Shown piece after piece: positions 2,781 through 50,683 of a stretch of 64,000 bases of DNA. Under the pieces are notes generated by a model. That model saw nothing but the letters and a program-made list of their open reading frames with translations, had not been told where the DNA came from and did no database searches. Made by a program: the position numbers and the translations under genes. Location of the stretch: positions 677 to 64,676 of the forward strand of contig CAIVRE010000009.1 in assembly GCA_903908245.1 (NCBI GenBank). The letters are read 5' to 3'. How positions within the stretch are numbered: position 1 is the first letter of the stretch; each line of letters begins with the position of its first letter. This stretch comes from Candidatus Omnitrophota bacterium. GTDB lineage: Bacteria; Omnitrophota; Gorgyraeia; Zapsychrales; Fredricksoniimonadaceae.

Positions 2781-2978
2781 TCAGGGTGTAACAAAAAAAG
2801 CCGAAAACTCAACAGGATCCATAAATGGCTGCAGGCTGATGATCTGGATGTCGAACCCCCGGAATAACTGAAGAGCCTGGGATGCGCGCATCGGCGAGAG
2901 ATGATCCAGGTCCCCGGAGACCCCATGATCCGGCTCAAAACGGATCTTGCGGGCCGTATCCGAAAGATCAACGCCGCC
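2781..2978 (-). other. Conserved C-terminal family module (~65 aa) of giant protein A
   Basis: GGVDLSD...L..LQ.F.GF...I.SLQPF is similar to the GGIDL...FNID..L..LQD..GFSPVI..I.P tails of the other three paralogs. Confidence 0.6.
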
Positions 2979-5900
2979 ATTCTCGTTTTGCGCGGCATTA
3001 TCCTGCGATGGATTATTGATCATTGCCAACCGTGAAAGGATCTGCTTGCGCAACGGGGTCATCCTAAAATTCTTTCTGGCGGAGATCTGACCGTATAAAC
3101 TTCTAAGCTGCTTCATATATACTGCGGGGTCAATAAATTCTTTTGCAGCACGCAATACTTCGATCTTCTTTTGGATCGCCTCAACCTCGGTTGCATACTG
3201 AAGATATTGCTGCGCCAGACCCGCGAGGACCGGGTCGCTTTCGGATGCCCGCCCGGAAACTTTCTTCGCAAACTCTTCTGTCCGCACAAAAACCTGACTA
3301 TTGACCTTTCGGATCTGTTTCCTGTGCATTTCAGGGATACTGGCCCCTTTTTCACCGCGTAATCCCTCGGCCATCTTTGTCAACACCCCGATCTCCGTCG
3401 CATATTCAGAATATTCTTGTGTCAGGCCCGAAACGACCGGATCATCCTTTGATCCCTGCCCCGCCGGAAGTTCTTCCTCCTGTTCAGACACCTTCACTTC
3501 CCCTCCCTGCGGCACACTCTCTGCCACAACAATGGGCTCTGCATTAGGGCCCACAACTTCCAATATCGGTCGTTTTTCGGGCAACGGCACCCCCGACAAC
3601 CATGGAAGGGACGTGGGGGATCCCCCCGCACCCAGGCCCAACAACCTGTTAACGGCCTCCACGTCCTGCGTTCCATTAATATGGATCAGCAATGCATCCC
3701 CCGGGTACGGCAGGGCAGCGTTAACCGTAAGGCTGTCCGGCACATTGCGCCTCTTGGCCTGGGAAAGCATTAGATAGAACGACCGGAAAAGATCAAAGGC
3801 GTCTGCCCTCTCACCCTCCTCATAATTATTTTGAATATCTGCCCATTCAGTCCGGATCTCGGGATAATCCTTGCTGATCTCACTTTCAGGTTTTACAAAA
3901 ACATTAAGGATATCATTAGTAAAATTAAGATACTTGAGCTGGCCGGCCAAACCCGTCTTTTTACCCAGTTGATCCAACAGATCGGTCACGGTCGCCACAA
4001 CCCTTGGCCCAAGGATCATAACGCCCGTTAATGCCGGGAACTGCTTCAACGTGTTATTCTTCAGATCATATTTCTCACGCAAATACTGTAATATTTTGCT
4101 GGGATGCACACTTTTCTCTTGATTTTCCTGCAACCGCCCAATATCCAGCTTCTCCAGGATCTCCCTGACGGGAGGCCGTGTCCGGGTAACATCAATATTA
4201 AGAAGGCCAAGGCCCTTTAACGCCTGCCCATCCACCCAATTGCCCAATAATCCGATATCCGTGCCCTCGAATCCCTGCATGGGGCCGAAATAGGCATCGC
4301 GGCTATAGATCAAAATGTGCCCGCCCCGTTCCGCCCCATGGCCAGGCCGCACCGGCTGCGAGGACGACTCGGAACACGGCCCGTTCATACACGCAGAAGT
4401 GCGATAACCGTTGATGACAGACCAGTCCAGGACACTGTCACTGCGCAACTCCCGGCTGCCGGCAAAAACAAACATCACTTTCAGATCACTCCACGGGATA
4501 CCCTTCAGATACGGATACCTGTCTGTAAAATCACTGTCCTGCAATCGGCTTTGAACAAACTGCACGGCCTCCAAATACGCATTCCCGCTTCCCTTTAATT
4601 GCGCAGGCAATACTTCAACCGGGACATCTTCCCTGAAAATACTTCCGCGACGGGAATCAACATACTGCTTAAGGCTGTCAACATCATCCGCATCCGGGTT
4701 CTCGGGAAGGATAACAAGCATGTCAATGCTTCTTTCATTCTCCGGCGCGATCTCCCAGCGCAGCTTCTTCATCCCGTCTTTCACGGCCAACTGAACACTA
4801 TTCTCATCGGAGCTGTTTAGCACACCAGCCGCAACCGATGCCCCCAACCTTCCACGCAGATCGGATACAAGTTTGTCGGTAACGCTCTTCATGGTCTTGC
4901 TCCACGACATTTGCATGATATTCGCATGCGGCACCCAGAAAATACCCATGCTGATCGCAACCGCCGCAATCCCTGCCAGAGATAACCCCATTGTCCCGGT
5001 CACACCGAACAAGACCATCACACCAAAGATCGTAAACCCGAAAGGCACTGAAAACAGCCGCAACCGGCTTATAAAACTGCGCATTTTATGATTATTCCGT
5101 GCCGTCAGCGACCCAAGGGAAGTTAAATTACTGGCATTCTTTATAACAGCCGACAATACACTTTTGCTCTGTTGCTCAATGTCCCCCGGATCCCCATAAA
5201 AAGACGGCATCAGGGTGTTGCCCTGCCGCAACAGGTCTGGCACCTCTTTCTTGATCTGTCGTTCAGACCTGGTCAACTGATAACTGTATAAAAGAGCCCA
5301 CCGCATAAATGGATAGATCTTGAAGCGCTCGGCCCAATGATCGTCCGCAAATTTATAATTCATTACTTTGTCTATGATCCCCCGATACTCCAGGATCCGC
5401 AAATACGTGGTGACATATTCCATCATTCGCGCCAGCGTCTCCGCATCGCCCAATAATTTCTGCTTCTGGTAATCATCCAAAGACGCATCATCCCTTTGAA
5501 GAAGATCATTCATGGCATTGATCGTGTCAATGGCCAGCAGATTAAAATGGCTCAACACCACCTGGTATCGTTCATTGAGGATCGGGTCGGACCCCTGCCT
5601 CAACATCAGTTCGGGAGTATACGGAGTCTTGCGAAGGATATCAAAAGCGCTGTTGAGAATAGCGTTAAGATCACTTAAAACAGCCTGCGGGCCTGGCTGA
5701 ACATGCCTCCATTGGGACACAAGAGTTCTCCAGCTCTGTAACGGCTTGATGACCGCCTCGTCAAGGCCCCTGTTCGGAATGATGACCACATCCGACGACA
5801 ATCCCTGGATATTAACCTTTCCATTCCCGTTGCCGCTTTCTGCAGCAAATTCCTGACGCAGCTCGCGGATCATGTCGCCGGTCTTGGCCATTTTTCTTAG

Positions 5901-8900
5901 GATATCTTTACGGATCTTCTTCGCGCCAACCCAGAAAAGAAGACCGCCGACCAGCGCCAGAACAAGTTGTGACGCCACGGTAAGCCTTGGAAAACCCTGA
6001 TCATTGCCGCTGATAACTCCGGAAAATTTATCCCTCAACCCGACAATGTCCCTGACCATATTGTTCGTTGTTTTATCTCCACGGGCACTTAACTGATCCA
6101 GATATTCATTCACTTCCTGCGGATCATTTGCAGATCCGATCCTTTGCTTTAACTCACGGATCAGGGCCTGTTCACGGGGCGTATAGGCTGCCTGGCCCGA
6201 TAACCAACGCATCTGATGATTTGCCCTCTCGGCGATCAGGTCCAACGCCAGACGCGTTGCTTCCACCTTGATCTGCTGCATACGAGGAGCCTCACCTCGC
6301 GGGTCGCTCGCCGCATGCAGTTCCGGCAGAGTATACGTTCCGAGACGGACGTTCAAAAGCCCTTTCTCACCGACGCGATCCGCCATCTTTTCCATGGCAT
6401 GCCTGTAAACATCATTAGAAGCCGGATTATCAACGGCCTGCACATCCGCACGCAAAATATCGACCCAATGACGGCTGTCCACCAGGTCTAAAAGCCCTTT
6501 ATCATTTGAACCGGCATAAACCTGCAACGCCATCATCCGTCCGAGAGCGGTCGTCATCAAACGGTCCAGGGCCATACCCCTCAGCGATGTCTGTGATCGA
6601 AGGATACGTGCGAGCTCGGGGATATTATTCGTCCGGGCGATCTGCCTCTTCTGATCCTCCAGGTTAAGTCCATTAAAATACGCCAACGACGACGTCCCCT
6701 GCCCCCCTGCCGCCGTAATGCCGCTTAAAAATGGATCCAACCCTGTTGCCGCACGACCATTCAATGAAACGAGTGTTCCCGCGGCGATCTTCGCCCTTTC
6801 GTATAATGCCGGTGCAATAAAATCCTTCATCTCTCTCCATCTTGGAGAAGTCATTAAAAACCGGCGGTCAGCGGAACTCCATTCCCGCAGCATCACCAAG
6901 GCACGAAGGTCCTTGTCAAAAACAACCGACGAAAGATTGGCGAATGGCCCGGGGTAAAAAACATCTTCCATATTGCCCAAAGCCTCGCGCCTCAGGATCT
7001 CGTCATAGATCAGGACGGCCAGGCCTTGCGGTACCGATCCCGCCTGGCCTTTAAGGGTGTTATAAGTTTGCGCCAACTGATCCGATGTCCAGTAATCACT
7101 CTGCAACAAGCGCGACCTGGCAACGGAATCTTCCGGCGCCCAGGAGAGGAAAGCCAACAAGGCACGACGGCCCGCACCTGACTGACCCTGTCCGGCCAAT
7201 TGCCCAACAGCACCGGGATCCTGGATGAGGATATCACTTAACATTTCAAAACCAACCCCTGCGACACCAGGTTTTCGCTGATCAATGGCCTTCTCGATCA
7301 CCTGCGTCAGGAACCGCACATCATGACCGTCCCGGTTGACCGCGAACTGCAAAAGATTTACCACCACTTCAGAGTAGGGCGAATTAAGAACGGCCTGTTC
7401 AATGCCGGACAGAGATCTCCGGTCATTCGAAAGCTCCTCTGTCAGGAGCTTCATCGCCTCTGCCCGGGCCCTGATATTGGAGTCCTGTGTCAGGATCCCT
7501 ACGGCGATATCGATCTGAGCTTGCCGTGGATCTCCGGCTTCCGGGTTACTCATCAAAGCCCATAAATTCGATCCGCTCTTCCCGTCCGAAACCCCCGGTA
7601 CGGGGTAGATCACTGCTCCGGCGGATAATACCCCGGGATCCTGACGCTTTGAATTCAGCCCCTGCTGCCCTGGACCGAAGCCGGACAGATCAAGGGTCAA
7701 TTGCCCTTCTCCAATATCTCCCGCGAACACACTGCCACCGGCAACGGCTGAAACAAGCTGTGGGGCGAACGCAGCCGCTCTTGTCCTCGACGGCCTCACC
7801 AGAGACTGGTCCTGTTTCATTACCTGGATCCGCCCCAAACGGGCCTCAGCCTTGAAATATTCCGCTTTAAGGTCGATCAGCCGTTCAAAGGCCTTTGCCA
7901 TCCGCTGATGCTCGTCGACCAGTTGATCTTTCCTGTAAAGATCCGGCCGTCCGGCTTTCTCCTGCCACGCGTTCAAGGCAGCCTTATGCTCGGCCTCTCC
8001 CTGTTCGATCTGACGGCTCAAGTCCCTGATCTCCGACACGGCTTTAGTGAATGCCTCACCAAGCTCTGCCTTGACGGTATCCAAATGAAGCTGGACCTTC
8101 GCCCTTTCCAAAAGCACGATCTCCTTGCGCGCATCCCTGCCGGAATCAAAGATAGGAAGTTCAAAATGTAGCGCCCCGTTGCCTCCTGTTGTCAAAGAAC
8201 TTGTCCTCATCTTTGACCCGGGAGAAAGATCATACAACGGATTGACCGCCTGCCCCTGGGATCCGGAAATGAAGAGCCCCGTCAGGTCCGCTGTCGGCAA
8301 ATATTCCGACCCCTGCAACTTGATCGTTTCTTCCACGGCAGCCCGGGCAACCTGCGCCCCCCGCAGCCGGTAATTGGGGCTGCCCTCTCCTGTCAATTGG
8401 TGCCGCAAGGACTCCTGTTGATCAGCGGCAATCGCCAGGAATTCTCCATCCCACAATAATTTCGGGGAAATATCCTCCTGCAATCTTTCAGCGGGCCGGC
8501 CCAGCATCTGGTTAAGCTCGATCGTCGATTGTTTCTTCTTGTTCTGCCAGCTCAACAGCTGCGCACGGAATTCGCCGGTCTGCTGGGCCAGAACATTAAG
8601 GTCAGAGGTAGTAGCAAAACCTCCCGCCTCCCTGGCCTTAAGCCCTTTTTGCGCCTCTTCCAGATCGGCAACCAGCGCCTGAAGCTGAACAATATGCTGT
8701 TGGGCACGTCCGATCTCAACGAACAGGGCCGTTGCATCGTTGACCTGTCCGGCAACCGCATCTTCCATATGATGCTGGGCGATCTGGGTCATTTTTAACG
8801 CCAGCGCTTTCTCTTTTAATTTCTTCCCTGAAACGACATCCATGATCTCGCCGGCCACACTAAATACAATCGGAGAAGCCGCGGCAATAGCATTACCGGT

Positions 8901-11900
8901 CGAAACACCGGCCATGACATCGTCAAAAACACCATTAAGCCCGCCGCTGAACGCCAGCTTGCCATTGTTGTTCACAAAAACACCGGCCTGTAAAGCCAGG
9001 CGGGAACTCCCCGACAAACGCTCCGACGCCTTGCTCTTAAGAACATCAATGGTCAACTCACCATTAAGAAAATTGTTCCCTGAGACCCGTGCAACCACCT
9101 CCGTAATATTCAAGTTCGCCGCGGGTTGAACAGGCAACCGCAGGAGAGCCTCCCCCATCTGCACAGGCAAAGGTTTAACCCCGGCCTCAGACGATCGAAA
9201 GACCAGCCGCGGATCCATTTGAGCCAGAACACCGTCTTGCTGTCTTGCAGTATTGATCCGGTCCTGTTCCGACTTCCCCAACGCTGCCAGAATAACGGGG
9301 CTTTCCGCCTCTGTCGGCACAATAATCTGAACCGGCAGGTTGACCCACAAAACGCCGTTCCTGTCTCCATCTACGATGACCGCGACAGCCTTGACAGGCC
9401 CGAGATCGATTTCCCGTCCCACAGGGGCCTCATTGACAGCAGATACCCTTCCCGCCAGGCGTTCACCGGACGGCGCCTGAACAAGAACGGGGTCTCCAAT
9501 TCCGAGCTTCACATCCTTCGGCAACAAGATAGCCGTATTCATATCATTAATATCACCGACCGTAACACGGCCTGTTCTTACCCTCAGAAGTTCGTCCCCT
9601 TTGGAGAATGATGACGAATGTTCCGAAAGGATCCCTGTAACAACGCCGCTTTCCGTCGCCACGACCCGAAGGCGGGATATCTGCCCCTGAAGCGTCAATA
9701 TCTGCGCCCGTAACGACGCCCTTCTGGCCTCTAACTCCGCCTCCTGGCCGCGAAGAGTATGCCGGACACCCGACCCATCCGGCCCGGCTTGCGCAAGCTG
9801 AGCCTGAATGCTGTTAAAAGCCTTGACCGCACCGCGATATTCCTCAAAGTATGATCCCTCCACAACCTCGGCGACTACCTGACCGGCCTCAACCCTGTCC
9901 CCCTCTTTAACAAAAAATTTTACAGGTCCGCGCGCGGGAGCTACCATGACCCGCTCTTCCAGCTTACGGACCATCGCAAGTGTCTGCGCCTGTCCACGAA
10001 CAGCATCAAAATTGGCCTGCGTCTTCAGCGGCGGAAATATTTCAGCCTCCACCTGAACCGTACTGTTCGGCGGGATCATCGAAGAAGTTGTAACAAGGAA
10101 CGAAACGATCGCCCCGGTCTTTTTCGGATTGAGCTGCCAATCAACGCTCACAATATTCTTGACCGGCTGGCCATCGATCCTGAAATTACGGATACGGCCA
10201 AAATATGTCTGAGTCACCGGGATCTCGATATTCAAACGAGCCCTTTGTCCGTAATAGTAACTGACGATATCCACACCCTTGTTCACCGTCATTCCATTAG
10301 CCACCAGAACCTCTTTAATGGAAAGGTCACACGGGGCTTTAACGGCTTCAACAGAACCCTTCTGATCAGCCTGGGCCAACTGCCTGCGAAGCTCATTGAT
10401 CCTTTCTTCCACCGGGGTGAGCTCTGCGACCGTCGCCCCGCCTTGAGCCTGCAGTCCCTTCAAAACCCTGTAGGTCCCTTCTTCGATAACCAACCGCCTG
10501 GCCAATCCTTCCCGTTGCTGCACTCTCTCAGGATCGATCAACGAAAAGATAATGTCTCCCTGCTTGTACTGTCCCTTGCTCTGGTCAAGGCCAAGGACAA
10601 TACCGCCAACCTGGGCCGTCAAACCAGCCTCGTCAAGGACAAGAGGGGTCTTCGCCGAGATCACATACGGCTTCACAAAGGCCATTTCTGCCTCGACCAT
10701 CTTGGCCACTCCGGCATCGGCATACTTTTGATCCGCAACACGGATAGCGGGTGACACCTCGACTGCGGGAGGATATTTGATCGGGACAGCCTTGGAGCTT
10801 GCCTCAGGAGCCGGAACAGCGGCAGGCACGAACAGTTTCTTGACGATCGTTCCATCCGATCGAGGATGAACATCGTGTTTTTCAACATTGTTCCCGCCAG
10901 GAAGGCCATATGACACAAAAGTGCCGGCCGGAAAGATCGTATAAATACCCTTACCTCCCTCATAACCTACCAGCAGCTTCGTGCTTTTCGTCAACGGGAT
11001 AAATCCCTGGATGTCAAGGTCCGCAACGATCGTCTCTTCTCCGGTCTCCCTGTTTATAAGAGTACCCGAAGCAACCGATCGCGTTTTGGTTCCCTGATGA
11101 AGTTCTGCATCCTGTCCTGGCTGCTCCAACACGATCGGTGTCACGCGCTCAACAATGGCGGGATGCGCCGGCCCAGGCAATGGATCATTACCGGTTATTG
11201 TACACCCGGAAGAAGTACACAATCCAGCCGACGCGGCGAGAACCAACAATAACTTTCTTGATACACCCTTTGGAAGCAAAGAGAACTTTAAACGAAAGAA
11301 ATTGCTGACCGGCAGGACTGTTTTACCAGAGAAGAACGAAACAGGCCGGAACTGGATCTTTTGCGCTGCATCTTCGAATGAAAACCCACCCGAAAAATAC
11401 CGCCTGGGCACTGCCTCCTGCTGACCGGGGTCATACTCCTCCCGGATCATGTCGTAAGCGCCCTGCTTGAGCGCCAGCATATACTGTTCATAGATACGCT
11501 GACTTGCGCCCCTGTCTTTTGTATCAATACCCGCTATTTTCTTCCGGCCAGCGTATATTTGATTAACAATATTGCTCTTAAGCTGGCGCTTGAACCAGAT
11601 CGCCAGTATCAATGCGTGATACATTTGACGCAACTGGGCGAACTGCGGGCCATCGTTCACTTCCCGTTCGATCTCCGGGATAATGATCTCGCGTGTGATC
11701 GTAGAGCACAATCCATTGATCTTTTCACGATCGCCGGCGGGTACCGCATTATCGGGGACGATCTTTTTCATGCTCAAATAGTCTTCATCGAGCAAAACTT
11801 TCAGACGGCTCCCGGAAATGAACGCAGCCCCATCTTTCTCATAAACAACAGCACTCTCGGGGATCACCCATACCTTGTTAACGGAATTCAGGGGGACATC

Positions 11901-12449
11901 AACATTGCCATATTGCTGCCTGATCTTTATGTAAACCTGTTCCCAGAATTTCTTTCCCAGTTCGTGCTCGGGATTGGTCATCGAAGCGGCGATCTGTTTC
12001 AGGAAGTAATCCTGTGTCAGCATGTCCTTCCCCGCCGTTGTCGCGCCAAAGACCGGATTGACGATACGGTCCGGCTCGGCCGGAGAAAGGTTGACCCAAA
12101 GGTCCTTTGCGGGAAATGTCAGGAACGTAAGAAAATATTTTATAAGCGACCTGGACTGTTCCTCATCCACTTGCGCATGACTCCCGGCATCAACGACAAA
12201 ATTGATCTTGAACGGGTCATTGGGATCAAGTGAGATGGCTTTGAGATTGGGGATAAAAGACGGGGGTGCTATGGATAATTCCACTCCTGGCGGAGGCGCC
12301 ATCACAATGCTTTGCGCGTGTGCCTCCCGAACACCCAGGATATCAAAAGAATAAACAAGCAATAACGCCCAGATCATACATTGGAACCATGGGCGCCCCC
12401 TTAAGGCAAGTGAAGGATTCAGTTTTCTCTCTCGGGTCAATTGACGCAT
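2781..12449 (-). CDS. Giant secreted multidomain protein, paralog A (3222 aa). N-terminal family module, internal signal/lipobox-like segment, two HlyD-type membrane-fusion modules, TolC-like outer-membrane-factor module, 3 predicted TM helices, family C-terminal module
   Basis: Uninterrupted 9.7 kb ORF. N-terminal module aa ~46-355 is homologous to the three other giant ORFs (DPFKINF, DLWVNLSP, GKKFW, LRQMY, PRRYFSGG). Real start may be the internal Met at ~12377 (MIWALLLVYSF...AHAQ signal peptide). Confidence 0.9.
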   Translation of the reverse strand: MRQLTRERKLNPSLALRGRPWFQCMIWALLLVYSFDILGVREAHAQSIVMAPPPGVELSIAPPSFIPNLKAISLDPNDPFKINFVVDAGSHAQVDEEQSRSLIKYFLTFLTFPAKDLWVNLSPAEPDRIVNPVFGATTAGKDMLTQDYFLKQIAASMTNPEHELGKKFWEQVYIKIRQQYGNVDVPLNSVNKVWVIPESAVVYEKDGAAFISGSRLKVLLDEDYLSMKKIVPDNAVPAGDREKINGLCSTITREIIIPEIEREVNDGPQFAQLRQMYHALILAIWFKRQLKSNIVNQIYAGRKKIAGIDTKDRGASQRIYEQYMLALKQGAYDMIREEYDPGQQEAVPRRYFSGGFSFEDAAQKIQFRPVSFFSGKTVLPVSNFFRLKFSLLPKGVSRKLLLVLAASAGLCTSSGCTITGNDPLPGPAHPAIVERVTPIVLEQPGQDAELHQGTKTRSVASGTLINRETGEETIVADLDIQGFIPLTKSTKLLVGYEGGKGIYTIFPAGTFVSYGLPGGNNVEKHDVHPRSDGTIVKKLFVPAAVPAPEASSKAVPIKYPPAVEVSPAIRVADQKYADAGVAKMVEAEMAFVKPYVISAKTPLVLDEAGLTAQVGGIVLGLDQSKGQYKQGDIIFSLIDPERVQQREGLARRLVIEEGTYRVLKGLQAQGGATVAELTPVEERINELRRQLAQADQKGSVEAVKAPCDLSIKEVLVANGMTVNKGVDIVSYYYGQRARLNIEIPVTQTYFGRIRNFRIDGQPVKNIVSVDWQLNPKKTGAIVSFLVTTSSMIPPNSTVQVEAEIFPPLKTQANFDAVRGQAQTLAMVRKLEERVMVAPARGPVKFFVKEGDRVEAGQVVAEVVEGSYFEEYRGAVKAFNSIQAQLAQAGPDGSGVRHTLRGQEAELEARRASLRAQILTLQGQISRLRVVATESGVVTGILSEHSSSFSKGDELLRVRTGRVTVGDINDMNTAILLPKDVKLGIGDPVLVQAPSGERLAGRVSAVNEAPVGREIDLGPVKAVAVIVDGDRNGVLWVNLPVQIIVPTEAESPVILAALGKSEQDRINTARQQDGVLAQMDPRLVFRSSEAGVKPLPVQMGEALLRLPVQPAANLNITEVVARVSGNNFLNGELTIDVLKSKASERLSGSSRLALQAGVFVNNNGKLAFSGGLNGVFDDVMAGVSTGNAIAAASPIVFSVAGEIMDVVSGKKLKEKALALKMTQIAQHHMEDAVAGQVNDATALFVEIGRAQQHIVQLQALVADLEEAQKGLKAREAGGFATTSDLNVLAQQTGEFRAQLLSWQNKKKQSTIELNQMLGRPAERLQEDISPKLLWDGEFLAIAADQQESLRHQLTGEGSPNYRLRGAQVARAAVEETIKLQGSEYLPTADLTGLFISGSQGQAVNPLYDLSPGSKMRTSSLTTGGNGALHFELPIFDSGRDARKEIVLLERAKVQLHLDTVKAELGEAFTKAVSEIRDLSRQIEQGEAEHKAALNAWQEKAGRPDLYRKDQLVDEHQRMAKAFERLIDLKAEYFKAEARLGRIQVMKQDQSLVRPSRTRAAAFAPQLVSAVAGGSVFAGDIGEGQLTLDLSGFGPGQQGLNSKRQDPGVLSAGAVIYPVPGVSDGKSGSNLWALMSNPEAGDPRQAQIDIAVGILTQDSNIRARAEAMKLLTEELSNDRRSLSGIEQAVLNSPYSEVVVNLLQFAVNRDGHDVRFLTQVIEKAIDQRKPGVAGVGFEMLSDILIQDPGAVGQLAGQGQSGAGRRALLAFLSWAPEDSVARSRLLQSDYWTSDQLAQTYNTLKGQAGSVPQGLAVLIYDEILRREALGNMEDVFYPGPFANLSSVVFDKDLRALVMLREWSSADRRFLMTSPRWREMKDFIAPALYERAKIAAGTLVSLNGRAATGLDPFLSGITAAGGQGTSSLAYFNGLNLEDQKRQIARTNNIPELARILRSQTSLRGMALDRLMTTALGRMMALQVYAGSNDKGLLDLVDSRHWVDILRADVQAVDNPASNDVYRHAMEKMADRVGEKGLLNVRLGTYTLPELHAASDPRGEAPRMQQIKVEATRLALDLIAERANHQMRWLSGQAAYTPREQALIRELKQRIGSANDPQEVNEYLDQLSARGDKTTNNMVRDIVGLRDKFSGVISGNDQGFPRLTVASQLVLALVGGLLFWVGAKKIRKDILRKMAKTGDMIRELRQEFAAESGNGNGKVNIQGLSSDVVIIPNRGLDEAVIKPLQSWRTLVSQWRHVQPGPQAVLSDLNAILNSAFDILRKTPYTPELMLRQGSDPILNERYQVVLSHFNLLAIDTINAMNDLLQRDDASLDDYQKQKLLGDAETLARMMEYVTTYLRILEYRGIIDKVMNYKFADDHWAERFKIYPFMRWALLYSYQLTRSERQIKKEVPDLLRQGNTLMPSFYGDPGDIEQQSKSVLSAVIKNASNLTSLGSLTARNNHKMRSFISRLRLFSVPFGFTIFGVMVLFGVTGTMGLSLAGIAAVAISMGIFWVPHANIMQMSWSKTMKSVTDKLVSDLRGRLGASVAAGVLNSSDENSVQLAVKDGMKKLRWEIAPENERSIDMLVILPENPDADDVDSLKQYVDSRRGSIFREDVPVEVLPAQLKGSGNAYLEAVQFVQSRLQDSDFTDRYPYLKGIPWSDLKVMFVFAGSRELRSDSVLDWSVINGYRTSACMNGPCSESSSQPVRPGHGAERGGHILIYSRDAYFGPMQGFEGTDIGLLGNWVDGQALKGLGLLNIDVTRTRPPVREILEKLDIGRLQENQEKSVHPSKILQYLREKYDLKNNTLKQFPALTGVMILGPRVVATVTDLLDQLGKKTGLAGQLKYLNFTNDILNVFVKPESEISKDYPEIRTEWADIQNNYEEGERADAFDLFRSFYLMLSQAKRRNVPDSLTVNAALPYPGDALLIHINGTQDVEAVNRLLGLGAGGSPTSLPWLSGVPLPEKRPILEVVGPNAEPIVVAESVPQGGEVKVSEQEEELPAGQGSKDDPVVSGLTQEYSEYATEIGVLTKMAEGLRGEKGASIPEMHRKQIRKVNSQVFVRTEEFAKKVSGRASESDPVLAGLAQQYLQYATEVEAIQKKIEVLRAAKEFIDPAVYMKQLRSLYGQISARKNFRMTPLRKQILSRLAMINNPSQDNAAQNENGGVDLSDTARKIRFEPDHGVSGDLDHLSPMRASQALQLFRGFDIQIISLQPFMDPVEFSAFFVTP
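11384..12311 (-). other. Conserved N-terminal family module of giant protein A
   Basis: Aligns by eye with the N-termini of ORFs 15127-17514, 19215-22448 and 50492-55183. Confidence 0.8.
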
Positions 12450-15126: not shown

Positions 15127-15318
15127 TTACTTCTGCTCGTTCAACCCTAAAAACAACCTCAGATCACTCATCGGCTCAATATTGATGATAACCGGCGAAA
15201 AACCCAGAGTGTCCTGAAGTTCCTGTAACTTCACCTGATCAATATTGAACTGCAGCCCATCACCCGAACCTCGTGTTTCCACGCTCAAACGTTCCGCCGT
15301 CAGGTCAATACCACCTTT
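15127..15318 (-). other. Conserved C-terminal family module of paralog B
   Basis: KGGIDLTAERLSVETRGSGDGLQFNIDQVKLQELQDTLGFSPVIINIEPMSDLRLFLG. Confidence 0.7.
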
Positions 15319-17514
15319 GGTGGCGTCCACCTTCCCCTCAGGAACCTTGGGGATCGAAGACTTCTCCAGATACGCGTTCAACGTATTGATCAACCGTTTT
15401 GTCAACGGAGCCAGGGCTGCAGGGCGAACTCCCTCTCTCACAGGCAAAAGCAACTGCCGTCCAACCTTAAAAAAATACTCTTCTATTACTGTCAGGTCTT
15501 CCGATCGGATATATCGCTCAACATCCTGAAGTATCTTTATTCCTTTACCGTCCTTAAAATACGGATGTTCCAACAAGGCATCAAAAAAACAGAAATCATC
15601 TTCGGAAATTGCCCCTTCAGGCAAATCCCTCGCGCCATACTGGGCCAAAAGGATGGCTAAAAACAAAAGCTCATGCCTGGCTGAATCCGGCTCCCCGTTG
15701 ACCGATAAACGCTTGTTGCCAATATCGACCATAATGACTTCCTCTGAAGGCCCCCTGACAATGAAATTCCGGCCATGCATATCCTTCGGCAGGATCCCAT
15801 GCAGGGCTGCTGCAATGGTCAGCAAGGTGCTCGTAACCTTCTTCTTAAGGGTAATGGTCAATTTCTTTTCCTGGGCATATTCTTCGATCGTTCGCCCTTC
15901 GATAAACTCTTCCACATAAACAACCCTGCCGCCTTCAGAAACAAATAACCCGCCCCATTGCGGAACGCCCCGGCCGTTCAATTGCCTCAAATTATTCGTT
16001 TCATGAGACCCTATGTCCTTTTGATTTTTCGCCCTTTTAACGGCCAGAAGAATATAAAAAGACCCGCCTTCTTTTAACGTGAATTGCATTTTGTAAACAT
16101 ATTTAAAAGCCCCTTCACCTGCGAATGAGACCGACACTTTTTCATCCAGATCATCCAGGTGTAAATTCGGGTGCTTGCTGATATTCTTTAGAAATTGCAA
16201 TAAAAGGCTCGGCTTCACCTTCTCGAACATTTCCATGGAAACGCTCAGCATATCGCCATAGATCTCTGTCCTCTTTTGATCTGTCTCCGCTATCAGAGGC
16301 CTCTGCACATCAACCCGAAAATGCGGTGCCTCTGCCCCTGGGTTGACAAGATCGTTTGTCGCCTCTGCCCGGTCAAAGCGTGACTGAACGACAGATAACG
16401 CACCCCGTGAATTCCTGTCATCGATCATGCTGCCGTCCGCAATAACTGTCATTGACAGATCGGTAAGCTGGGAATAATTCACCCCTCCCGAGAAATACTT
16501 CCGCGGGATAAGCTCACCGGAGACCGTATCTTGCTCCTCCTTGATAAGATCATAGGCGCCCTTCTTGAACGCCTCGACATACTGCGCCCAGATCTTCTCC
16601 GACTCCAAAGGATCATTAATATTGACACCCTCGACCTTGTTACGGTCAACATACACCAGGGACAAGACGCTCTGTTTGATCTTTTTCTTGAACCATGCCG
16701 CCAGGATCAACGACTGATAAACCTGACGTAACTTGGCAAAATTCTTCCCCTCATTGACCTCTTTCTCAAGCTCAGGGAGAACGATCGCACGGATCACATT
16801 CTTGGCCAGTTCCTGGGATTCCTTAACGGCTCCGGAAGCTTCACTACCTGCCCCAGTTGTGACCGAATTATTCAAGGCCACATAATCGCTTTCAAGCATG
16901 ACCTTGAGGCGGCTCTCAACCACATACGCCGTCCCGGCCTTGGCATTCTCATAGACCACGGCCTTCCCGGGAATAATCCAGACCTTATTAAACGTATCCA
17001 CCGGGATATCGGTGGTGCCATATTTCTCCTGCGCCTTTTTGTAAACCGCGGCCCAAAACTTTTTGCCTGTTTCGCCCTCGGGATAAATGACGGACGCTGT
17101 GATCTGTTTGAGAAGATAGTCCTGCGCCAAAAGATCCCGGCCCATTTCTGTCCGGCCGAACGCATCCGGCACAATACGGTCTTTTTCATAAGGGCTAAGA
17201 TTCACCCAAAGATCTTTCTCGGGAATAGTCAAAGACGCCATGAAATACCGGATCAGCCGCGCAGACTCCTCTTTGAGCTGATCGGACGAGTCCGGGAAGT
17301 TCCCTTTATCGAGAATAAAATCAAACCGTAATGGATCGGCAGGATAAACCTTGATGCCTTTGAATACCGGCGGCGCAAAAGGCGCGCTTAAAGACACCAT
17401 GGAACCAGGTGCAGGAAGAACAACGCTCTGGGCGTAAGAGGCAGGCACACTCGCGGCCACGAAGGCTATCAGCGTAAACGCTAAAATGAGTCTTTTTAAA
17501 AACCCCTTTATCAT
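15127..17514 (-). CDS. Giant-family secreted protein, paralog B (795 aa): N-terminal family module, protein-kinase-fold domain, C-terminal family module
   Basis: Signal peptide (..AASVPASYAQS); N module aa 31-345; kinase-like region aa ~455-660 (FAGEGAFKYVY, AVKRAK, DMHGRN, VDIG); C module aa 732-795. Confidence 0.9.
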   Translation of the reverse strand: MIKGFLKRLILAFTLIAFVAASVPASYAQSVVLPAPGSMVSLSAPFAPPVFKGIKVYPADPLRFDFILDKGNFPDSSDQLKEESARLIRYFMASLTIPEKDLWVNLSPYEKDRIVPDAFGRTEMGRDLLAQDYLLKQITASVIYPEGETGKKFWAAVYKKAQEKYGTTDIPVDTFNKVWIIPGKAVVYENAKAGTAYVVESRLKVMLESDYVALNNSVTTGAGSEASGAVKESQELAKNVIRAIVLPELEKEVNEGKNFAKLRQVYQSLILAAWFKKKIKQSVLSLVYVDRNKVEGVNINDPLESEKIWAQYVEAFKKGAYDLIKEEQDTVSGELIPRKYFSGGVNYSQLTDLSMTVIADGSMIDDRNSRGALSVVQSRFDRAEATNDLVNPGAEAPHFRVDVQRPLIAETDQKRTEIYGDMLSVSMEMFEKVKPSLLLQFLKNISKHPNLHLDDLDEKVSVSFAGEGAFKYVYKMQFTLKEGGSFYILLAVKRAKNQKDIGSHETNNLRQLNGRGVPQWGGLFVSEGGRVVYVEEFIEGRTIEEYAQEKKLTITLKKKVTSTLLTIAAALHGILPKDMHGRNFIVRGPSEEVIMVDIGNKRLSVNGEPDSARHELLFLAILLAQYGARDLPEGAISEDDFCFFDALLEHPYFKDGKGIKILQDVERYIRSEDLTVIEEYFFKVGRQLLLPVREGVRPAALAPLTKRLINTLNAYLEKSSIPKVPEGKVDATKGGIDLTAERLSVETRGSGDGLQFNIDQVKLQELQDTLGFSPVIINIEPMSDLRLFLGLNEQK
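16479..17421 (-). other. Conserved N-terminal family module of paralog B
   Basis: About 70 percent identical by eye to the paralog C module; motifs YPADPLRFDF, DLWVNLSPYEKDRIVP, EMGRDLLAQDYLLKQ, GKKFW, TTDIPVDTFNKVWIIP, RLKVMLESDY, LRQVYQSLILAAWFKKK, PRKYFSGG. Confidence 0.85.
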
Positions 17515-19214: not shown

Positions 19215-19418
19215 TTACAGACCGCCTGCGGCGTTCGGCTGAATTCCCAGGAACTGTTGTAAACTTTCCGCCGGAAGTATCGACATGATCACCGGGGAAA
19301 ATCCTTCCGCGTCCTGCAGTCGCTGAAGCATGACCGGATCGATATTAAATGTAATCTCCCCGCCCTGATTGCGCACCACCAACCCCAGCTTGTCCGCGTT
19401 AAGATCGATACCACCTTT
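19215..19418 (-). other. Conserved C-terminal family module of paralog C
   Basis: KGGIDLNADKLGLVVRNQGGEITFNIDPVMLQRLQDAEGFSPVIMSILPAESLQQFLG. Confidence 0.7.
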
Positions 19419-22400
19419 GGTGTCTCCTGTTGGCAAATGCCCGACAGGCACCGCACTACCAGCCGAAGACAACAAACTATCAGGGACTTGATAATCAGAC
19501 CGCAAAAGACCCATTGCTTTAAACACATCACAATAAAAACCAACATCCTTATCTGACATGCCGTCAAACATAAAATTCCTTCTTCCCGACCCATAGCCCT
19601 GGAACAACCAAGCCATCACCTCTTTACCCAACCGCTCATCAGACCCGATGGTGCGATTACTGAGAATATCGGCAAGAACATCCCCGTATGTCCCGCTGAT
19701 CCTGTTCTTTAATACCTCCCATTTACCTGCACTCTGAAGTCGTTGTAGCATGTTAAGAACGATTTCCGGGGACTTTTGCTGATAAGCATGCAATAACTCA
19801 TGCAGGATCGACGCCTTTGTCTCTTGTCGAATATATTCTGCAGCGACACGATACGGATCCCTGTTCATCGAACGCGCCTCGAGAGCGATCTTGTCAACAA
19901 CATCGCCCCTCTTATTGATCAACGCAGCGCCTATGGCCATATTCAACATCTGTTCTTTGCTTTTGAAAATAGGGCGGAAACAAATCCCCGTCGCAGGATC
20001 AAAGAAAAAGAACGGGGTTGCGCTCATGTTCAATTGCATGAATGCCCCGCCATTCCCGACAAACGGCGCTTTCTGAAAACTCTCAGGATCTTTGATATTG
20101 ATGCCCAACTTCTCCAACAGATCCCCGAGCACAGGATTGGCAAGCGCCTCTCCACGGGCCTGACGAAGATATTCCTCCTGCCCCTTCTCGCCGAACACAT
20201 CCAAATGCCCTTCAGGGATCTTGTCATTACTGGCAATATAACCGGTCAAGCCATTGCCTTTACTTGCAGGAACTTTTATTGAATTTCCATTAAGTCCATC
20301 GAGAACAGATAAGACGCTCCCCAATTCTTTTGTGATACCCGGGCCCAATTCTCCTCTGTTGTTCGGTGCAAGCGGCGCTCCATCCCGACTAAAAGAACCG
20401 ATCCCCGCAGACTCTCCGGTCCAGCTCACCGCCACTGGCGATCCAAATGCAAGATAATTCTGCAGTCCCGTCATCCCTATAAAAGCCGTACCTTGAGGAG
20501 CCGCCTTCAAACGCTCTCTCAGACCATTCACGGCCGATTTATACTCTTCAATTGTTTGTTGGGCCTCCTTGATCTGCGCATTAATGAACTCAATGAAAGC
20601 CCCCATTCTCGCTTGAACAACATACGGGCGTCCGTCGGGTGTTCGATCGTATTGAAACCCATTCAATAACTGTCCCGTACGTCCCAGGGCTTCCGGACTG
20701 ATCCCGGACTCTAAATAACCTTTGGCCCAATCAAGGAATTTTTGAGACTGAAGCAGATCAACACTCATACTCGACATTTGATGCAAATACCCCCTCACAT
20801 TCCCAACGGGGTCTGCGAGCTCTTCATCAAAAATAACACGCACGGACTTTCCGTTCGATGAAGTGAACCTGAACCCGCCTTGAGTGCTCATCTGCCCATT
20901 GATATCCGCCGATCTTGGCACAAGAATGACCCGCCCACCCATCCGGCGATCAACCTGAAAAGTCACCACAAAGTCACCATCAAAGATCACCCCTGAGAAA
21001 CCATTATTCAAGATCAACTTTGCCTTGTGTCCCGTATATTGAAGCATGTTATCGCCTAAAGTTGCAACAGACAGGGCCCCATCCCTATCCAACTCAACCC
21101 GGTTAAGATACTGATCCCATCCCTCGGATGCTCTGCCATTGGCCCGGAGAACTCCTTCATTAAGACCCCCCTGAAACACGACCCTGTCGCGTGCTATTTC
21201 CTGGCTCCCGGCAACAGCAGCACTTCCAGGATCTTTGGCCGCCTGGACCACCCCAGCAATGCCCGCATTGGCATTATTAAATGTGGTAAGCGTCATCGAG
21301 ACGACCAACATCCCGAGGAATGCCGCCCGCGAGAACCCCCCGGTCATTTGCGCCGGGCTTGCCGTCACATTCAACACCGGCGACATCGCGAAGTTCACTC
21401 CACCCGAGAAATACTTCCGCGGGATCATCTCGTCGGCGTAAACATCCCGTTCTTCTTTGATGTAATTGAACGCACCCTTCTTGAACGCCTCAACGTAACG
21501 ACCCCAGATCTTTTCCGACTCCTTCGGGTCATCAATGTTGACCCCCGCGACCTTTTTCTGGTCGACGTAAACCTTGCTAAGAATGCTCGCCTTCACCTTT
21601 TTCTTATACCAGGCCGCCAGGATCAGCGATTGATACACCTGGCGCAACCGCGTAAAGTTCCTGCCTTCATTGACCTCTTTCTCAAGCAAAGGAAGGACGA
21701 TCTCCCGGATAACATTCTTGGTGAGTTCCTGCGTTTCCGGCACAACACCATTGCCTGAAAGCTCTGGCGCCTTCACCACCGCATTATCCAGCGCAACATA
21801 ATCGCTCTCCAGCATGACCTTGAGCCTGCTGGCAACAACAAAAGCCTTATCCCCGTTCTCAAAGACCTCGGCCTCGGCAGGAACGATCCAGACTTTATTA
21901 AAAGTGTCCACGGGAATGTCCGTTGTGCCGTACTGCTCGGCCGCTCTGCGATAAACCTCGGCCCAGAATTTTTTGCCTGCTTCACTCTCGGGATAAATGG
22001 CGGATGCGGTCACCTGCTTGAGCAAATAGTCCTGCGCCAGAAGATCGCGCCCCATCTCGCTCCGCCCGAATTCATCAGGGATGATGCGGTCTTTCTCGTA
22101 AGGCGAAAGGTTCACCCACAGATCCGTCTCGGGAACGGTCAGGCTGGCCAGAAAATATTTGATCAACCGGTTCGATTCGTCTTTTAATTCAGCACCAGGA
22201 TACACGGAATCACCTTTATCCAGAAGGAACTCGAAGCGGAACGGATCGTCGGGATGGACCTTGATTCCTTTAAGGACAGGCGGATTAAACGTTGAGCTTA
22301 ACTCAACCCGACTACCCGGTGCCGGTAAATACAAGGCACCCTGAGCATATGCATCGGGAACGATCTGGGCAAGGACCAATAAAAAAGAAAGGGCGCTGAC

Positions 22401-22448
22401 TGCGCCCTTTCGAAGAAAGCTGTAAATGCTTCCCGTCTTATTCATCAT
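19215..22448 (-). CDS. Giant-family secreted protein, paralog C (1077 aa): N-terminal family module, hydrophobic segment, beta-rich region, HELLHxxQQ zincin-like motif, C-terminal family module
   Basis: Signal peptide (..VPDAYAQG); N module aa 37-350; HELLH encoded at 19788-19802 (checked at nucleotide level); C module aa 1010-1077. Confidence 0.9.
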   Translation of the reverse strand: MMNKTGSIYSFLRKGAVSALSFLLVLAQIVPDAYAQGALYLPAPGSRVELSSTFNPPVLKGIKVHPDDPFRFEFLLDKGDSVYPGAELKDESNRLIKYFLASLTVPETDLWVNLSPYEKDRIIPDEFGRSEMGRDLLAQDYLLKQVTASAIYPESEAGKKFWAEVYRRAAEQYGTTDIPVDTFNKVWIVPAEAEVFENGDKAFVVASRLKVMLESDYVALDNAVVKAPELSGNGVVPETQELTKNVIREIVLPLLEKEVNEGRNFTRLRQVYQSLILAAWYKKKVKASILSKVYVDQKKVAGVNIDDPKESEKIWGRYVEAFKKGAFNYIKEERDVYADEMIPRKYFSGGVNFAMSPVLNVTASPAQMTGGFSRAAFLGMLVVSMTLTTFNNANAGIAGVVQAAKDPGSAAVAGSQEIARDRVVFQGGLNEGVLRANGRASEGWDQYLNRVELDRDGALSVATLGDNMLQYTGHKAKLILNNGFSGVIFDGDFVVTFQVDRRMGGRVILVPRSADINGQMSTQGGFRFTSSNGKSVRVIFDEELADPVGNVRGYLHQMSSMSVDLLQSQKFLDWAKGYLESGISPEALGRTGQLLNGFQYDRTPDGRPYVVQARMGAFIEFINAQIKEAQQTIEEYKSAVNGLRERLKAAPQGTAFIGMTGLQNYLAFGSPVAVSWTGESAGIGSFSRDGAPLAPNNRGELGPGITKELGSVLSVLDGLNGNSIKVPASKGNGLTGYIASNDKIPEGHLDVFGEKGQEEYLRQARGEALANPVLGDLLEKLGINIKDPESFQKAPFVGNGGAFMQLNMSATPFFFFDPATGICFRPIFKSKEQMLNMAIGAALINKRGDVVDKIALEARSMNRDPYRVAAEYIRQETKASILHELLHAYQQKSPEIVLNMLQRLQSAGKWEVLKNRISGTYGDVLADILSNRTIGSDERLGKEVMAWLFQGYGSGRRNFMFDGMSDKDVGFYCDVFKAMGLLRSDYQVPDSLLSSAGSAVPVGHLPTGDTKGGIDLNADKLGLVVRNQGGEITFNIDPVMLQRLQDAEGFSPVIMSILPAESLQQFLGIQPNAAGGL
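21398..22337 (-). other. Conserved N-terminal family module of paralog C
   Basis: See paralog B; near-identical motif set. Confidence 0.85.
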
Positions 22449-26188: not shown

Positions 26189-26206
26189 AGCCCCTCCAGT
26201 GGAGAA

Positions 26207-26668
26207 TCAGCCTGTTCCTAAACGGATCTTGAAGACCAGTTTCTTGACTTCGCAATGGCCTTCATCCGGTGAGCACAAAGGGCGGTGAGCCTCGCCAGGA
26301 AAAAATACGGCAAACTCACCCGCACGGATCAGATTTCGGGTTATATCTTTTTCGGCCTTAAAGAACTGGCAATCCGTTTTCGGGTCATATTCCGTCAAAG
26401 GCGCCAACGCATCCTCCGGGGCCGTCTCCATCACTTCCCGGCCCTGAACAACATACTGCAGATCCATATACTCACGGTGCGTTTCAAACTTGCCATCTTT
26501 GGGATCCCTGGTAGGGCCTTGCGATGCCCGCAGGAAAAGCTCACGGCCTTTGATCTCAAGCTCCGGCGCAAATGGGCCGGCGATATCCGCCGCCGCAAGA
26601 AAGCGTGCGATCTCTTTCCTGGATGAAATATTATACCGCCCCAAATTCTTGATATTATCGATGATCAC
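26207..26668 (-). CDS. YhcH/YjgK/YiaL (DUF386) cupin-like protein
   Basis: 153 aa; HREYMDLQYVVQGRE...FAVFFPGEAHRP pattern. Confidence 0.65.
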   Translation of the reverse strand: MIIDNIKNLGRYNISSRKEIARFLAAADIAGPFAPELEIKGRELFLRASQGPTRDPKDGKFETHREYMDLQYVVQGREVMETAPEDALAPLTEYDPKTDCQFFKAEKDITRNLIRAGEFAVFFPGEAHRPLCSPDEGHCEVKKLVFKIRLGTG

Positions 26669-26682
26669 AAAAACTTCTCCTC

Positions 26683-27537
26683 TCAGCTTTTTCTTGTAAG
26701 ACGCTGCCTGAAAAACGGAAGGTTCCTTTCAGAAGAGAGAAAATAATAATCTTTCAACTTCCACGGAGCCTCGCCACGCTCAAAGGCCGCAGTATCAAGG
26801 AACTCGAGAGGCTTCCCGTCGGAGAAAGCATACAGGTTCAACCCCGCCTTCAGGAATATCGGCCAGGACCCCGCCAGGTCCCAGAAATGGACCTTGGCCA
26901 GCGAACCACAGCCACGGCCGATAGCGGGCCAGCAGAATTCACAGACCGCGGCCGCAAGAATGATCACCCGGCAATCCGTTTCTTTCCATTCAAACTTCGA
27001 AAGGATATCATCTGTCGCAATAAAGACGGAACGATTCGAAAGCTCTTCATCCACCGGAACAATCTTTGTTTTGACTTGCGCTGGCGTGAACGCATCTTTA
27101 ACAAAATACGCCGCGTCACCGTCACAATAAAATAATTCATTCAATGATGGAAAAAAGACCATGCCCAGCCAGGGGCGGCGCTCCTTCATCAGGCCGATGG
27201 AAATACCATAATACGGGATACGATTGGCATAAGCACGCGTGGCATCGATGGGATCAAGCGACCAGACAAATGGATGGGCATCAAGGAATGCATCATCCAG
27301 ATATTCACCGCGACGGGGATCTTCCTCATCAATAAGGACATGACGGCCGGACTTGATGAACGGGGATAATTTCCTGGCAGCCAAAGCAGAGATCTTAAGG
27401 TCAGTCTCGGTAATGACCGAGTTGTCAGGCTTTAACGATGAACGATTGCCATTGATAAGGCTTAAGGCAATGCCGCCACCTTCTTGCACCAGCTCGAACA
27501 TCACCTTCAGGCAGCTCTCGGCCGAAATCTCGCTCAT
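26683..27537 (-). CDS. Inositol monophosphatase / CysQ family phosphatase
   Basis: 284 aa; WSLDPIDATRAYA metal-binding motif, ATDDI, WD..AG motifs. Confidence 0.75.
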   Translation of the reverse strand: MSEISAESCLKVMFELVQEGGGIALSLINGNRSSLKPDNSVITETDLKISALAARKLSPFIKSGRHVLIDEEDPRRGEYLDDAFLDAHPFVWSLDPIDATRAYANRIPYYGISIGLMKERRPWLGMVFFPSLNELFYCDGDAAYFVKDAFTPAQVKTKIVPVDEELSNRSVFIATDDILSKFEWKETDCRVIILAAAVCEFCWPAIGRGCGSLAKVHFWDLAGSWPIFLKAGLNLYAFSDGKPLEFLDTAAFERGEAPWKLKDYYFLSSERNLPFFRQRLTRKS

Positions 27538-30121: not shown

Positions 30122-30128
30122 AACATTA

Positions 30129-34497: not shown

Positions 34498-34525
34498 CAC
34501 GATCCTCCCGACAGCCCCTGATCGG

Positions 34526-50491: not shown

Positions 50492-50683
50492 TTAATTAAC
50501 GCCCGCTCCAAAGAACCGGGGAAAACTTTCCAACGGCTTTATACTATATATGACAGGGGTCAATCCCGGGGCATCCTGATAAACTTTAAGCTCTTCAGGG
50601 CTGATGTTGAAATAAAAACCACCAGCCTGTCCCTGGACCTTCATATCCATCGTCCCGGCGCCAAGGTCAATACCGCCCTTCTC
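50492..50683 (-). other. Conserved C-terminal family module of paralog D
   Basis: KGGIDLGAGTMDMKVQGQAGGFYFNISPEELKVYQDAPGLTPVIYSIKPLESFPRFFG. Confidence 0.7.

Follow-up and report, generated by a model that had tools for sequence, protein, structure and literature searches.

A conserved C-terminal tail of exported Omnitrophota proteins is paired with one N-terminal domain and may be the second piece of a split carrier module

Results

Four genes with common ends in the window

The window, by which we mean the whole 64-kb stretch of DNA analysed here, carries four related genes on its minus strand. They encode protein A (2781..12449, 3222 aa), protein B (15127..17514, 795 aa), protein C (19215..22448, 1077 aa), and protein D (50492..55183, 1563 aa), and together they occupy about 20 kb, or about 31% of the window. 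They are set among housekeeping genes, a Bat/MoxR operon, and PFOR. The operon, which lies between the family genes at about 26200-35500 on the minus strand, is complete and ordinary-looking and is of the MoxR/DUF58/BatA-BatD type, with AAA_3, DUF58, VWA, TPR, and BatD.

An earlier inspection of the DNA without database searches (the sequence-only reading) had described a common C-terminal tail at 2781-2978, 15127-15318, 19215-19418, and 50492-50683. The translations, together with a profile built from relatives without any sequence of the window, confirmed the tail at all four places, where it makes up the last 63-67 codons and the stop codon of the four ORFs. The tail of B (15130..15315, minus strand) runs from GGIDL to the last residue (aa 734-795) and is followed by the stop codon at 15127-15129; its profile E-value was 1e-27. 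The tails of C (19218..19415, minus strand, aa 1012-1077) and D (50495..50677, minus strand, aa 1503-1563) gave E-values of 6e-29 and 4e-21, respectively. The consensus of these three tails is KGGIDL..(G).. FNI[DS] .. LQD..G[FL][ST]PVI..I.P..[SD].. F[LF]G. That is, the consensus proposed in the sequence-only reading holds for B, C, and D, but not for A, the tail of which (2784..2978, minus strand, aa 3158-3222) is divergent. Its sequence is NGGVDL...GFDIQIISLQP...F, with 21% identity to the tail of B. The match of A to the tail profile had an E-value of 1.2e-4 when the four proteins were searched and one of 0.014-0.036 when the window was searched in six frames; it covers the whole profile and lies at the very C-terminus of the protein. 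These values weakly suggest that A is a divergent carrier of the tail. The six-frame search detected no fifth copy of the tail in any frame of the window.

The four proteins also resemble each other at the other end. Each begins with a Sec-type signal peptide having an A-x-A/Q cleavage site (the slash marks the cleavage), and this is followed by a domain of about 320 aa, here called the N-domain, which ends in the invariant sequence PRKYFSGG. In protein B the two elements together span 16480..17514 on the minus strand, with a signal peptide at aa 1-~28 (...SYA/QS) and an N-domain at 16480-17436 (aa 27-345), the latter delimited by alignment with homologues from the whole family. In protein C they span 21396..22448 on the minus strand (signal peptide aa 1-~35, ...AYA/QG), the N-domain lying at 21396-22349 (aa 34-351). 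The corresponding region of protein D, located by alignment, is 54152..55183 on the minus strand, with the N-domain at 54152-55108 (aa 26-344). That of protein A is 11382..12449 on the minus strand, with the cleavage site ...AHA/QS and an N-domain at 11382-12320 (aa 44-356) that is the most divergent among the four.

We defined the family by two characters. One is a Sec-type signal peptide followed by an N-domain of about 320 aa ending in PRKYFSGG, and the other is a tail of about 65 aa, KGGIDL...PGFxPVIINIQP...FLG, located about 15 residues or less from the C-terminus. The first was found in all four proteins, and the second was found clearly in B, C, and D and weakly in A. The pairwise identities of the N-domains are 45-70% and those of the tails 31-55%, with an identical rank order. 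Recent gene conversion among the four copies was considered and rejected, the DNA of the N-domain region being just 65-72% identical.

The middle parts of the four proteins, which we call cargo, are mutually unrelated. The cargo of B (15316..16479, minus strand) is weakly protein-kinase-like, with sub-threshold NCBIfam and Pfam matches to MAD6 kinase, Bud32, and ABC1. The cargo of C (19416..21395, minus strand) matched no family. It contains the sequence HELLH (an HExxH motif; 19802-19816, minus strand, aa 883-887), and judging from this motif it may be a metallopeptidase, with no match to any peptidase family. The cargo of D (50678..54151, minus strand) shows weak similarity to GNAT acetyltransferases near aa 1314-1406. 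The cargo of A (2979..11381, minus strand) has HlyD/RND-adaptor-like and TolC/OEP-like segments and several strongly hydrophobic stretches, resembling pieces of a tripartite efflux system joined into a single exported polypeptide. Thus the statement of the sequence-only reading that the tail is carried by unrelated cargo is right for the middle parts, but the signal peptide and the N-domain are common to all four proteins.

Distribution, position, and conservation of the tail

We then used a tail profile made from seven tails against 1.84 billion representative proteins clustered at 50% identity. The profile matched 5,322 representative proteins at E<=1e-3 and 1,428 at E<=1e-10. The tail is therefore not restricted to the four proteins of the window, and the view that it is a dedicated and conserved C-terminal module was borne out, as was its occurrence on proteins with unrelated central regions. 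Among the best 150 of the 5,322 matches, the tail was always at the extreme C-terminus, while the protein lengths ranged from 74 to 2,927 aa. In 249 tail-bearing proteins measured, the median distance from the end of the profile to the end of the protein was 9 residues, and a further motif beyond the tail at the extreme C-terminus was not supported. The most conserved part of the tail is its distal half, PGF-PVIINIQP-x5-FLG.

A search with protein B gave more than 3,574 clusters at 90% identity, and the named relatives from this search were all hypothetical proteins of 'Candidatus Omnitrophica/Omnitrophota'. A scan of GTDB species representatives gave at least 583 copies of the family. The best 80 of these were nearly all in Omnitrophota MAGs, some being labelled 'uncultured Planctomycetales'. 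Single genomes have several copies, for example on at least 7 contigs in one MAG. An origin from phages was also considered and rejected; the commonest pattern coding for the tail had no match in viral contigs. Neither the tail nor the N-domain corresponded to any family in Pfam, NCBIfam, or PHROG when the four proteins, the tails, and a cargo-less member were searched.

Across the family, the length of the cargo varies between 0 and over 3,000 aa, and the cargo is highly diverse. In the relatives it includes hydrolases and peptidases (HAD hydrolase, GDSL lipase, M48, M23, NUDIX), kinases and related domains (HATPase_c, Ser/Thr kinase [Pkinase], phosphoglycerate kinase [PGK], guanylate kinase, PPDK_N), transferases (CheR and other methyltransferases, glycosyltransferase, GNAT), domains directed to nucleic acids (SNF2 helicase, HTH), and others (AvrB_AvrC, FHA, epimerase, GGDEF, TPR, HEAT).

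Two short motifs were observed around the tail. An extra internal GGIDLTPA.MNLQTQ, which corresponds to the first ~20 residues of the tail, is present in the multidomain members P0112 (aa 615-635), P0021 (aa 981-1002), and P0040 (aa 17-31), and it follows from these internal copies that the first ~20 residues can stand alone between cargo modules. The other motif, D[KR]A[MQ], occurs more often than its background of 0.65 per 1,000 aa in the 22 residues preceding GGIDL (48 of 261 proteins), and an enrichment is also seen in the 80 residues following YFSGG (36 of 144). Its instance in the window is FDRAEAT at aa ~370-380 of protein B. It may be a linker or a boundary signal.

Coupling of the tail to the N-domain

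When homologues were retrieved by way of protein B, the N-domain was present in 104 of 104, and 99 of these also had the tail. The five without it have non-tail ends, which is consistent with truncated contigs. Starting from the tail, we found the N-domain in 46 of the 66 tail matches of at least 450 aa. Long and short carriers of the tail that seemed to lack an N-domain were traced, and most proved to be cut by a contig end or to belong to split genes. In P0075 the ORF reaches the start of its contig. P0087, which has the tail only, lies in the same frame downstream of an N-domain ORF of 848 aa terminated by TAA. The tail-only P0261 represents the 3' portion of a gene that has a frameshift and runs off its contig, and P0257, also tail-only, sits on a fragmented nanopore contig.

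The same relation was seen in 79 loci from GTDB, where both ends occurred on 59 ORFs and the tail alone on 12. For 11 of these 12, either an N-domain ORF precedes the tail ORF, the two being separated by a frameshift or an in-frame stop, or the edge of the locus cuts the gene. The sole convincing exception is a singleton ORF of 531 aa (locus L064, 15747-17342), which has a full tail and no N-domain. This ORF is situated downstream of an OprB-like porin gene and has a pilin-like N-terminus, ..LAFTIIELVIVISVLA.., with weak resemblance to the prepilin methylation motif (PF07963, E 0.064).

Interrupted family genes were seen in other Omnitrophota MAGs as well. Four of them have a single in-frame TAA or TAG (L031 4692-4694, L050 11465-11467, L022 18752-18754, and L086 4885-4887, the last reading TAA ATA ATG), and in one the frame is shifted at a G11 run (L030 ~11310). 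Such genes could be pseudogenes, assembly errors, split genes, or cases of phase variation.

Sec-type signal peptides with A-x-A/Q sites were found in 127 of 130 full-length members. Together with the strictly terminal position of the tail and the tens of carriers per genome, this is what would be expected if the tail were an autonomous C-terminal sorting or secretion signal, read alone by an outer-membrane translocon or a sortase-like enzyme after export by Sec. The N-domain would then do a separate job, and the pairing of the two ends would come merely from one common ancestor. The exceptional ORF without an N-domain also speaks for such a signal. Against it stands the near-obligate pairing with one N-domain, which is unlike any known portable tag, and because of this pairing with a domain of ~320 residues we do not regard the tail as a free-standing sorting tag. 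The sequence-only reading had expected the tail to behave as portable signals such as LPXTG, T9SS-CTD, or dockerin do, and this expectation was not borne out; the tail almost never occurs without the N-domain. It had also suggested a search for a co-occurring partner gene. No recurrent neighbour was found in the 79 loci, in which the largest non-family cluster was present in only 5. This lack of conserved neighbouring machinery, and the lack of HMM matches to known signals, likewise argue against an autonomous signal, which we consider unlikely.

The two ends have also diverged together. Among 139 members, the identities of the N-domains correlated with those of the tails (Mantel r 0.69), and none of 999 permutations gave a value as high. 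The shortest form of the arrangement is represented by the cargo-less P0157 (438 aa), in which the N-domain extends to aa 351 and is connected by a 12-residue linker to the tail, which starts at aa 363.

The coupling and the co-divergence fit an association of the two ends in one molecule or between molecules. In the latter case, the tail could enter the N-domain of the next molecule in a manner like donor-strand exchange, so that a fibre or lattice would display the cargo and cargo-less members would act as spacers. The existence of a cargo-less member, the tolerance of any cargo size between the ends, and the many paralogues per genome suit such head-to-tail docking. On the other hand, we saw no sign of oligomerisation, the 12-residue linker of P0157 is compatible with docking in cis, and the co-divergence of N-domain and tail, being specific to each paralogue, argues against promiscuous pairing between paralogues. 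Docking in trans seems to us very unlikely.

Relatives of the N-domain in Streptomyces

A tblastn search of plasmids with protein B revealed hypothetical proteins of Streptomyces (for example, WP_121549542.1) that are homologous to the core of the N-domain, with E-values of 1e-25 to 1e-41 against the N-domain profile. Five of these plasmid-encoded proteins, of about 760-815 aa, were analysed (L084 2726-5047, L089 1328-3709, L091 1223-3502, L092 1187-3637, and L090 1268-3661). All five have a hydrophobic, signal-peptide-like stretch near the N-terminus, one of them being an unannotated ORF with an uncertain start. Four of the five end in LA[DH]TG, which is LAxTG-like, followed by a TM segment and an arginine cluster. 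This type of ending suggests that they are sortase-anchored surface proteins of the cell wall.

Each of the five proteins has exactly two GG[IV]D[LF] motifs, whereas two or more were found in none of 1,000 shuffled sequences. The first motif precedes the core by about 45 aa and has G-x-G-[LMV]-[QD]-Y-x-[FYM] after it. Its surroundings resemble GGIDL...G.GLQF of the Omnitrophota tail, as seen when GGIDLTAERLSVETRGSGDGLQFNI of the tail of B is compared with GGIDFTTLELRYLSDSGQGLQYAF. The second motif immediately adjoins the end of the core and can be aligned with ...PRKYFSGG[V][DN][LF] of the Omnitrophota proteins. The similarity between the tail and the Streptomyces element is at the level of the motif only, since a profile of half of the tail aligned 8 residues with this element at E 0.12-0.3. 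Because the Streptomyces motifs flank the core and are contiguous with it at its end, we think that the leading motif of the tail is a built-in and repeated part of the N-domain superfamily.

Thus the Streptomyces proteins are like the Omnitrophota family in having the N-domain core, a signal peptide, and GG[IV]D[LF] on either side of the core. They differ in having no cargo insertion and no distal tail half (PGF-PVIINIQP-FLG), and in possessing an unrelated N-terminal region of about 370 aa and a sortase-type anchor at the C-terminus. For the idea of an autonomous signal these proteins count in both directions. Their ending downstream of the core in a sortase-type anchor is in favour of it, but the leading motif of the tail belongs to the N-domain superfamily, which is against it.

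The invariant GG at both junctions, in YFSGG and in KGGIDL, might be read in another way, namely, as sites at which a protease cuts to free the cargo, as in double-glycine leaders or MARTX toxins. The extra internal GGIDLTPA.MNLQTQ copies of the multidomain members and the enrichment of D[KR]A[MQ] shortly before the tail and past the end of the N-domain would agree with such processing, and C39 peptidase domains are reported for giant proteins of Omnitrophota (bioRxiv 10.1101/2023.11.21.568195). However, neither the window nor the loci showed a protease domain or gene tied to the family, GG is just as expected in tight turns, and GG is kept in the Streptomyces relatives, which have no cargo to free. 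We consider processing at these sites highly improbable.

Predicted structures

An AF2 model of P0157 made with a 62-sequence alignment had a mean pLDDT of 76 and a pTM of 0.72. The core of the N-domain, with two long beta-hairpins and several long helices, was predicted with pLDDT above 90. The linker had low pLDDT, tail residues 371-390 had values of 84-92, and the distal tail had values of 42-66. The tail of B modelled alone (50-sequence alignment) had a mean pLDDT of 65 and a pTM of 0.29, with 51-60 in the region of the GGIDL hairpin; one hairpin, one helix, and an extended segment were predicted, at the low confidence which this mean pLDDT indicates. The contrast between the two models fits a packing of the proximal tail on the N-domain, the two predictions having been made from different sequences and alignments. 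As to an autonomous signal, the failure of the tail alone to be predicted as an autonomous fold is unfavourable, while the distal half, being most conserved and yet unstructured in the models, is favourable.

Foldseek searches of the PDB with the AF2 models of P0157 and of the B tail gave nothing significant, the best match being NheA (E 0.034, TM-score 0.09). When the profile was compared with PDB sequences, the only match was one of about 20 residues between the distal tail and single leucine-rich-repeat units, such as those of Roco (5il7, E 1e-5) and internalin A. It covers positions 57-77 of the tail profile (for example, window 15139-15201, minus strand), GF.PVI..I.P...L..FLG. We rejected homology of the distal tail with leucine-rich repeats; the match is probably a resemblance of compositional pattern only.

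Discussion

A proposed split carrier module

From the above results, we think that a Sec-exported carrier module has been split into two pieces by the insertion of cargo and that the tail is the C-terminal one of these, and we give this reading a probability of roughly 55%. The order in the protein is the Sec signal peptide, the N-domain of about 320 aa ending in ...PRKYFSGG[V][DN][LF], the exchangeable cargo, and the tail of about 65 aa starting from KGGIDL. N-domain and tail would be one conserved unit divided by a permissive insertion site beside the GG motif. The proximal half of the tail (GGIDL, beta-hairpin, and short helix) appears to repeat an element of the N-domain superfamily, and it most likely packs on the N-domain, so that the protein would be closed around the cargo.

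The distal half, PGF-PVIINIQP-x5-FLG, shows strong conservation and low model confidence, and the sortase-anchored Streptomyces relatives lack it. If the tail contacts a conserved partner in the envelope, this half is the likeliest surface for it. No partner was predicted for it. The following points are counted against the split carrier: the ORF of locus L064 without an N-domain, the lack of a conserved neighbour, the lack of a counterpart of the distal half in Streptomyces, the motif-level nature of the similarity between the proximal half and the Streptomyces element, the derivation of docking from pLDDT contrasts between models of different sequences, and the many cargo domains that depend on ATP or act on DNA. 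The architecture, the coupling of the ends, the exchange of cargo, the signal peptides, and the contiguity of the motif with the core in Streptomyces are results of the comparisons, and the docking of the tail, the binding of a partner, and the role in display or delivery are inferred from them.

With a layout of this kind, the module would serve as a shared chassis by which many kinds of enzyme are exported and afterwards displayed or delivered. The candidates for its role are surface display and the delivery of effectors by host-dependent Omnitrophota. Simple surface display explains the cargo poorly, because many of the cargo domains are ATP-dependent or directed to DNA and have no obvious substrate in the periplasm or at the surface. 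Since such cargo is hard to reconcile with the periplasm or the surface, we keep delivery into other cells under consideration.

Omnitrophota are abundant and uncultured, and an ultra-small size has been proposed for them (PMC10066038). Two reports propose a host-dependent or predatory lifestyle for the phylum (PMC10066038; bioRxiv 10.1101/2023.11.21.568195), which delivery into other cells would suit. Recent surveys list methyltransferase, HATPase_c, GNAT, and HAD domains in long or giant proteins of Omnitrophota, and the cargo of the present family overlaps this repertoire.

A further speculation, which we hold to be quite unlikely, is that N-domain and tail form a 'B' moiety specific to the phylum, in an AB-type system that would bring Sec-exported enzymes of cytoplasmic type into the host or prey. 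The cargo would then be kinases, acetyltransferases, NUDIX, SNF2 helicases, HTH regulators, and AvrB-like domains. If this were true, the family would be the main effector repertoire of the phylum, and the mechanism of translocation would be unrelated to T3SS, T4SS, T6SS, or MARTX.

Whichever role the split carrier has, the shared ends offer a simple sequence handle for listing a candidate set of secreted proteins or effectors in each Omnitrophota genome. The two ends define a permissive insertion site, and they provide two short elements that can be tested, namely, the GGIDL hairpin and the distal PGF-PVIINIQP-FLG motif.

Comparison with known systems

No description of the family or of its motifs came up in the literature searched, and keyword searches of the surveys of long and giant Omnitrophota proteins found none of the shared ends. 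Within the literature and databases searched, the family is undescribed. It is compared below with known systems having similar properties.

A C-terminal module common to diverse exported proteins is a feature of dockerin-cohesin, LPXTG, PEP-CTERM, and GlyGly-CTERM systems. The sequence-only reading held that the tail looks like neither LPXTG, PEP-CTERM, and GlyGly-CTERM nor the CTD of T9SS, and that it has no TM segment. Both statements agree with our data. The Pfam and NCBIfam models for LPXTG, PEP-CTERM, GlyGly-CTERM, dockerin, and the T9SS CTD did not match the tail, and neither a TM helix nor a basic cluster was found in 261 tails, in which the highest Kyte-Doolittle mean over 19 residues was 1.73. 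For dockerins, PF00404 gave no match, and the conserved positions of the tail, as judged from the sequence, do not appear to form a duplicated Ca-binding loop pattern. Traits of T1SS (RTX-type) are also absent, as the members have signal peptides in the proportion given above and RTX repeats gave no match.

The T9SS CTD of Bacteroidota resembles the present tail in several respects: the carriers have a Sec signal and heterogeneous cargo, the C-terminal domain is conserved and of 65-100 aa, and there are dozens of carriers per genome. However, TIGR04183 and PF18962 gave no match at E<=0.1 with whole proteins or at E<=10 with tails. The fold may differ as well: the T9SS CTD is a 7-stranded Ig-like beta-sandwich, and our tail is predicted, at low model confidence, to consist of a hairpin, a helix, and an extended segment. 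T9SS CTDs are present on proteins with unrelated N-termini, whereas our tail is tied to one N-domain (99 of 104). T9SS is not known in Omnitrophota, and no component of its machinery (PorV, Sov, PorU, and others) was found within the 64-kb window of the 98-kb metagenome scaffold.

MARTX toxins, which have conserved N- and C-terminal arms around variable effector modules, are matched by the family in architecture only. MARTX proteins have glycine-rich repeats as flanks, are secreted through T1SS with no Sec signal peptide, and free their effectors by means of an internal cysteine protease domain. With the four window proteins and 20 relatives, neither the A/B/C glycine-rich repeats nor the cysteine protease domain of MARTX was matched in Pfam or NCBIfam.

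Polymorphic toxins and effectors (Rhs, CDI, LXG, and similar) likewise combine a conserved part for trafficking with a highly variable payload and have numerous paralogues. They vary at the C-terminal tip, whereas the Omnitrophota family varies internally. Unlike them, the family has no conserved adjacent immunity-like gene, and its cargo is mostly not toxin-like.

In conclusion, the family is closest in logic to the T9SS CTD and closest in architecture to MARTX, and it lacks defining traits of both, as it does those of LPXTG, PEP-CTERM, and GlyGly-CTERM anchors, dockerins, and T1SS signals. Its unusual trait among these systems is that the conserved terminal module is split into two ends which are obligatorily paired.
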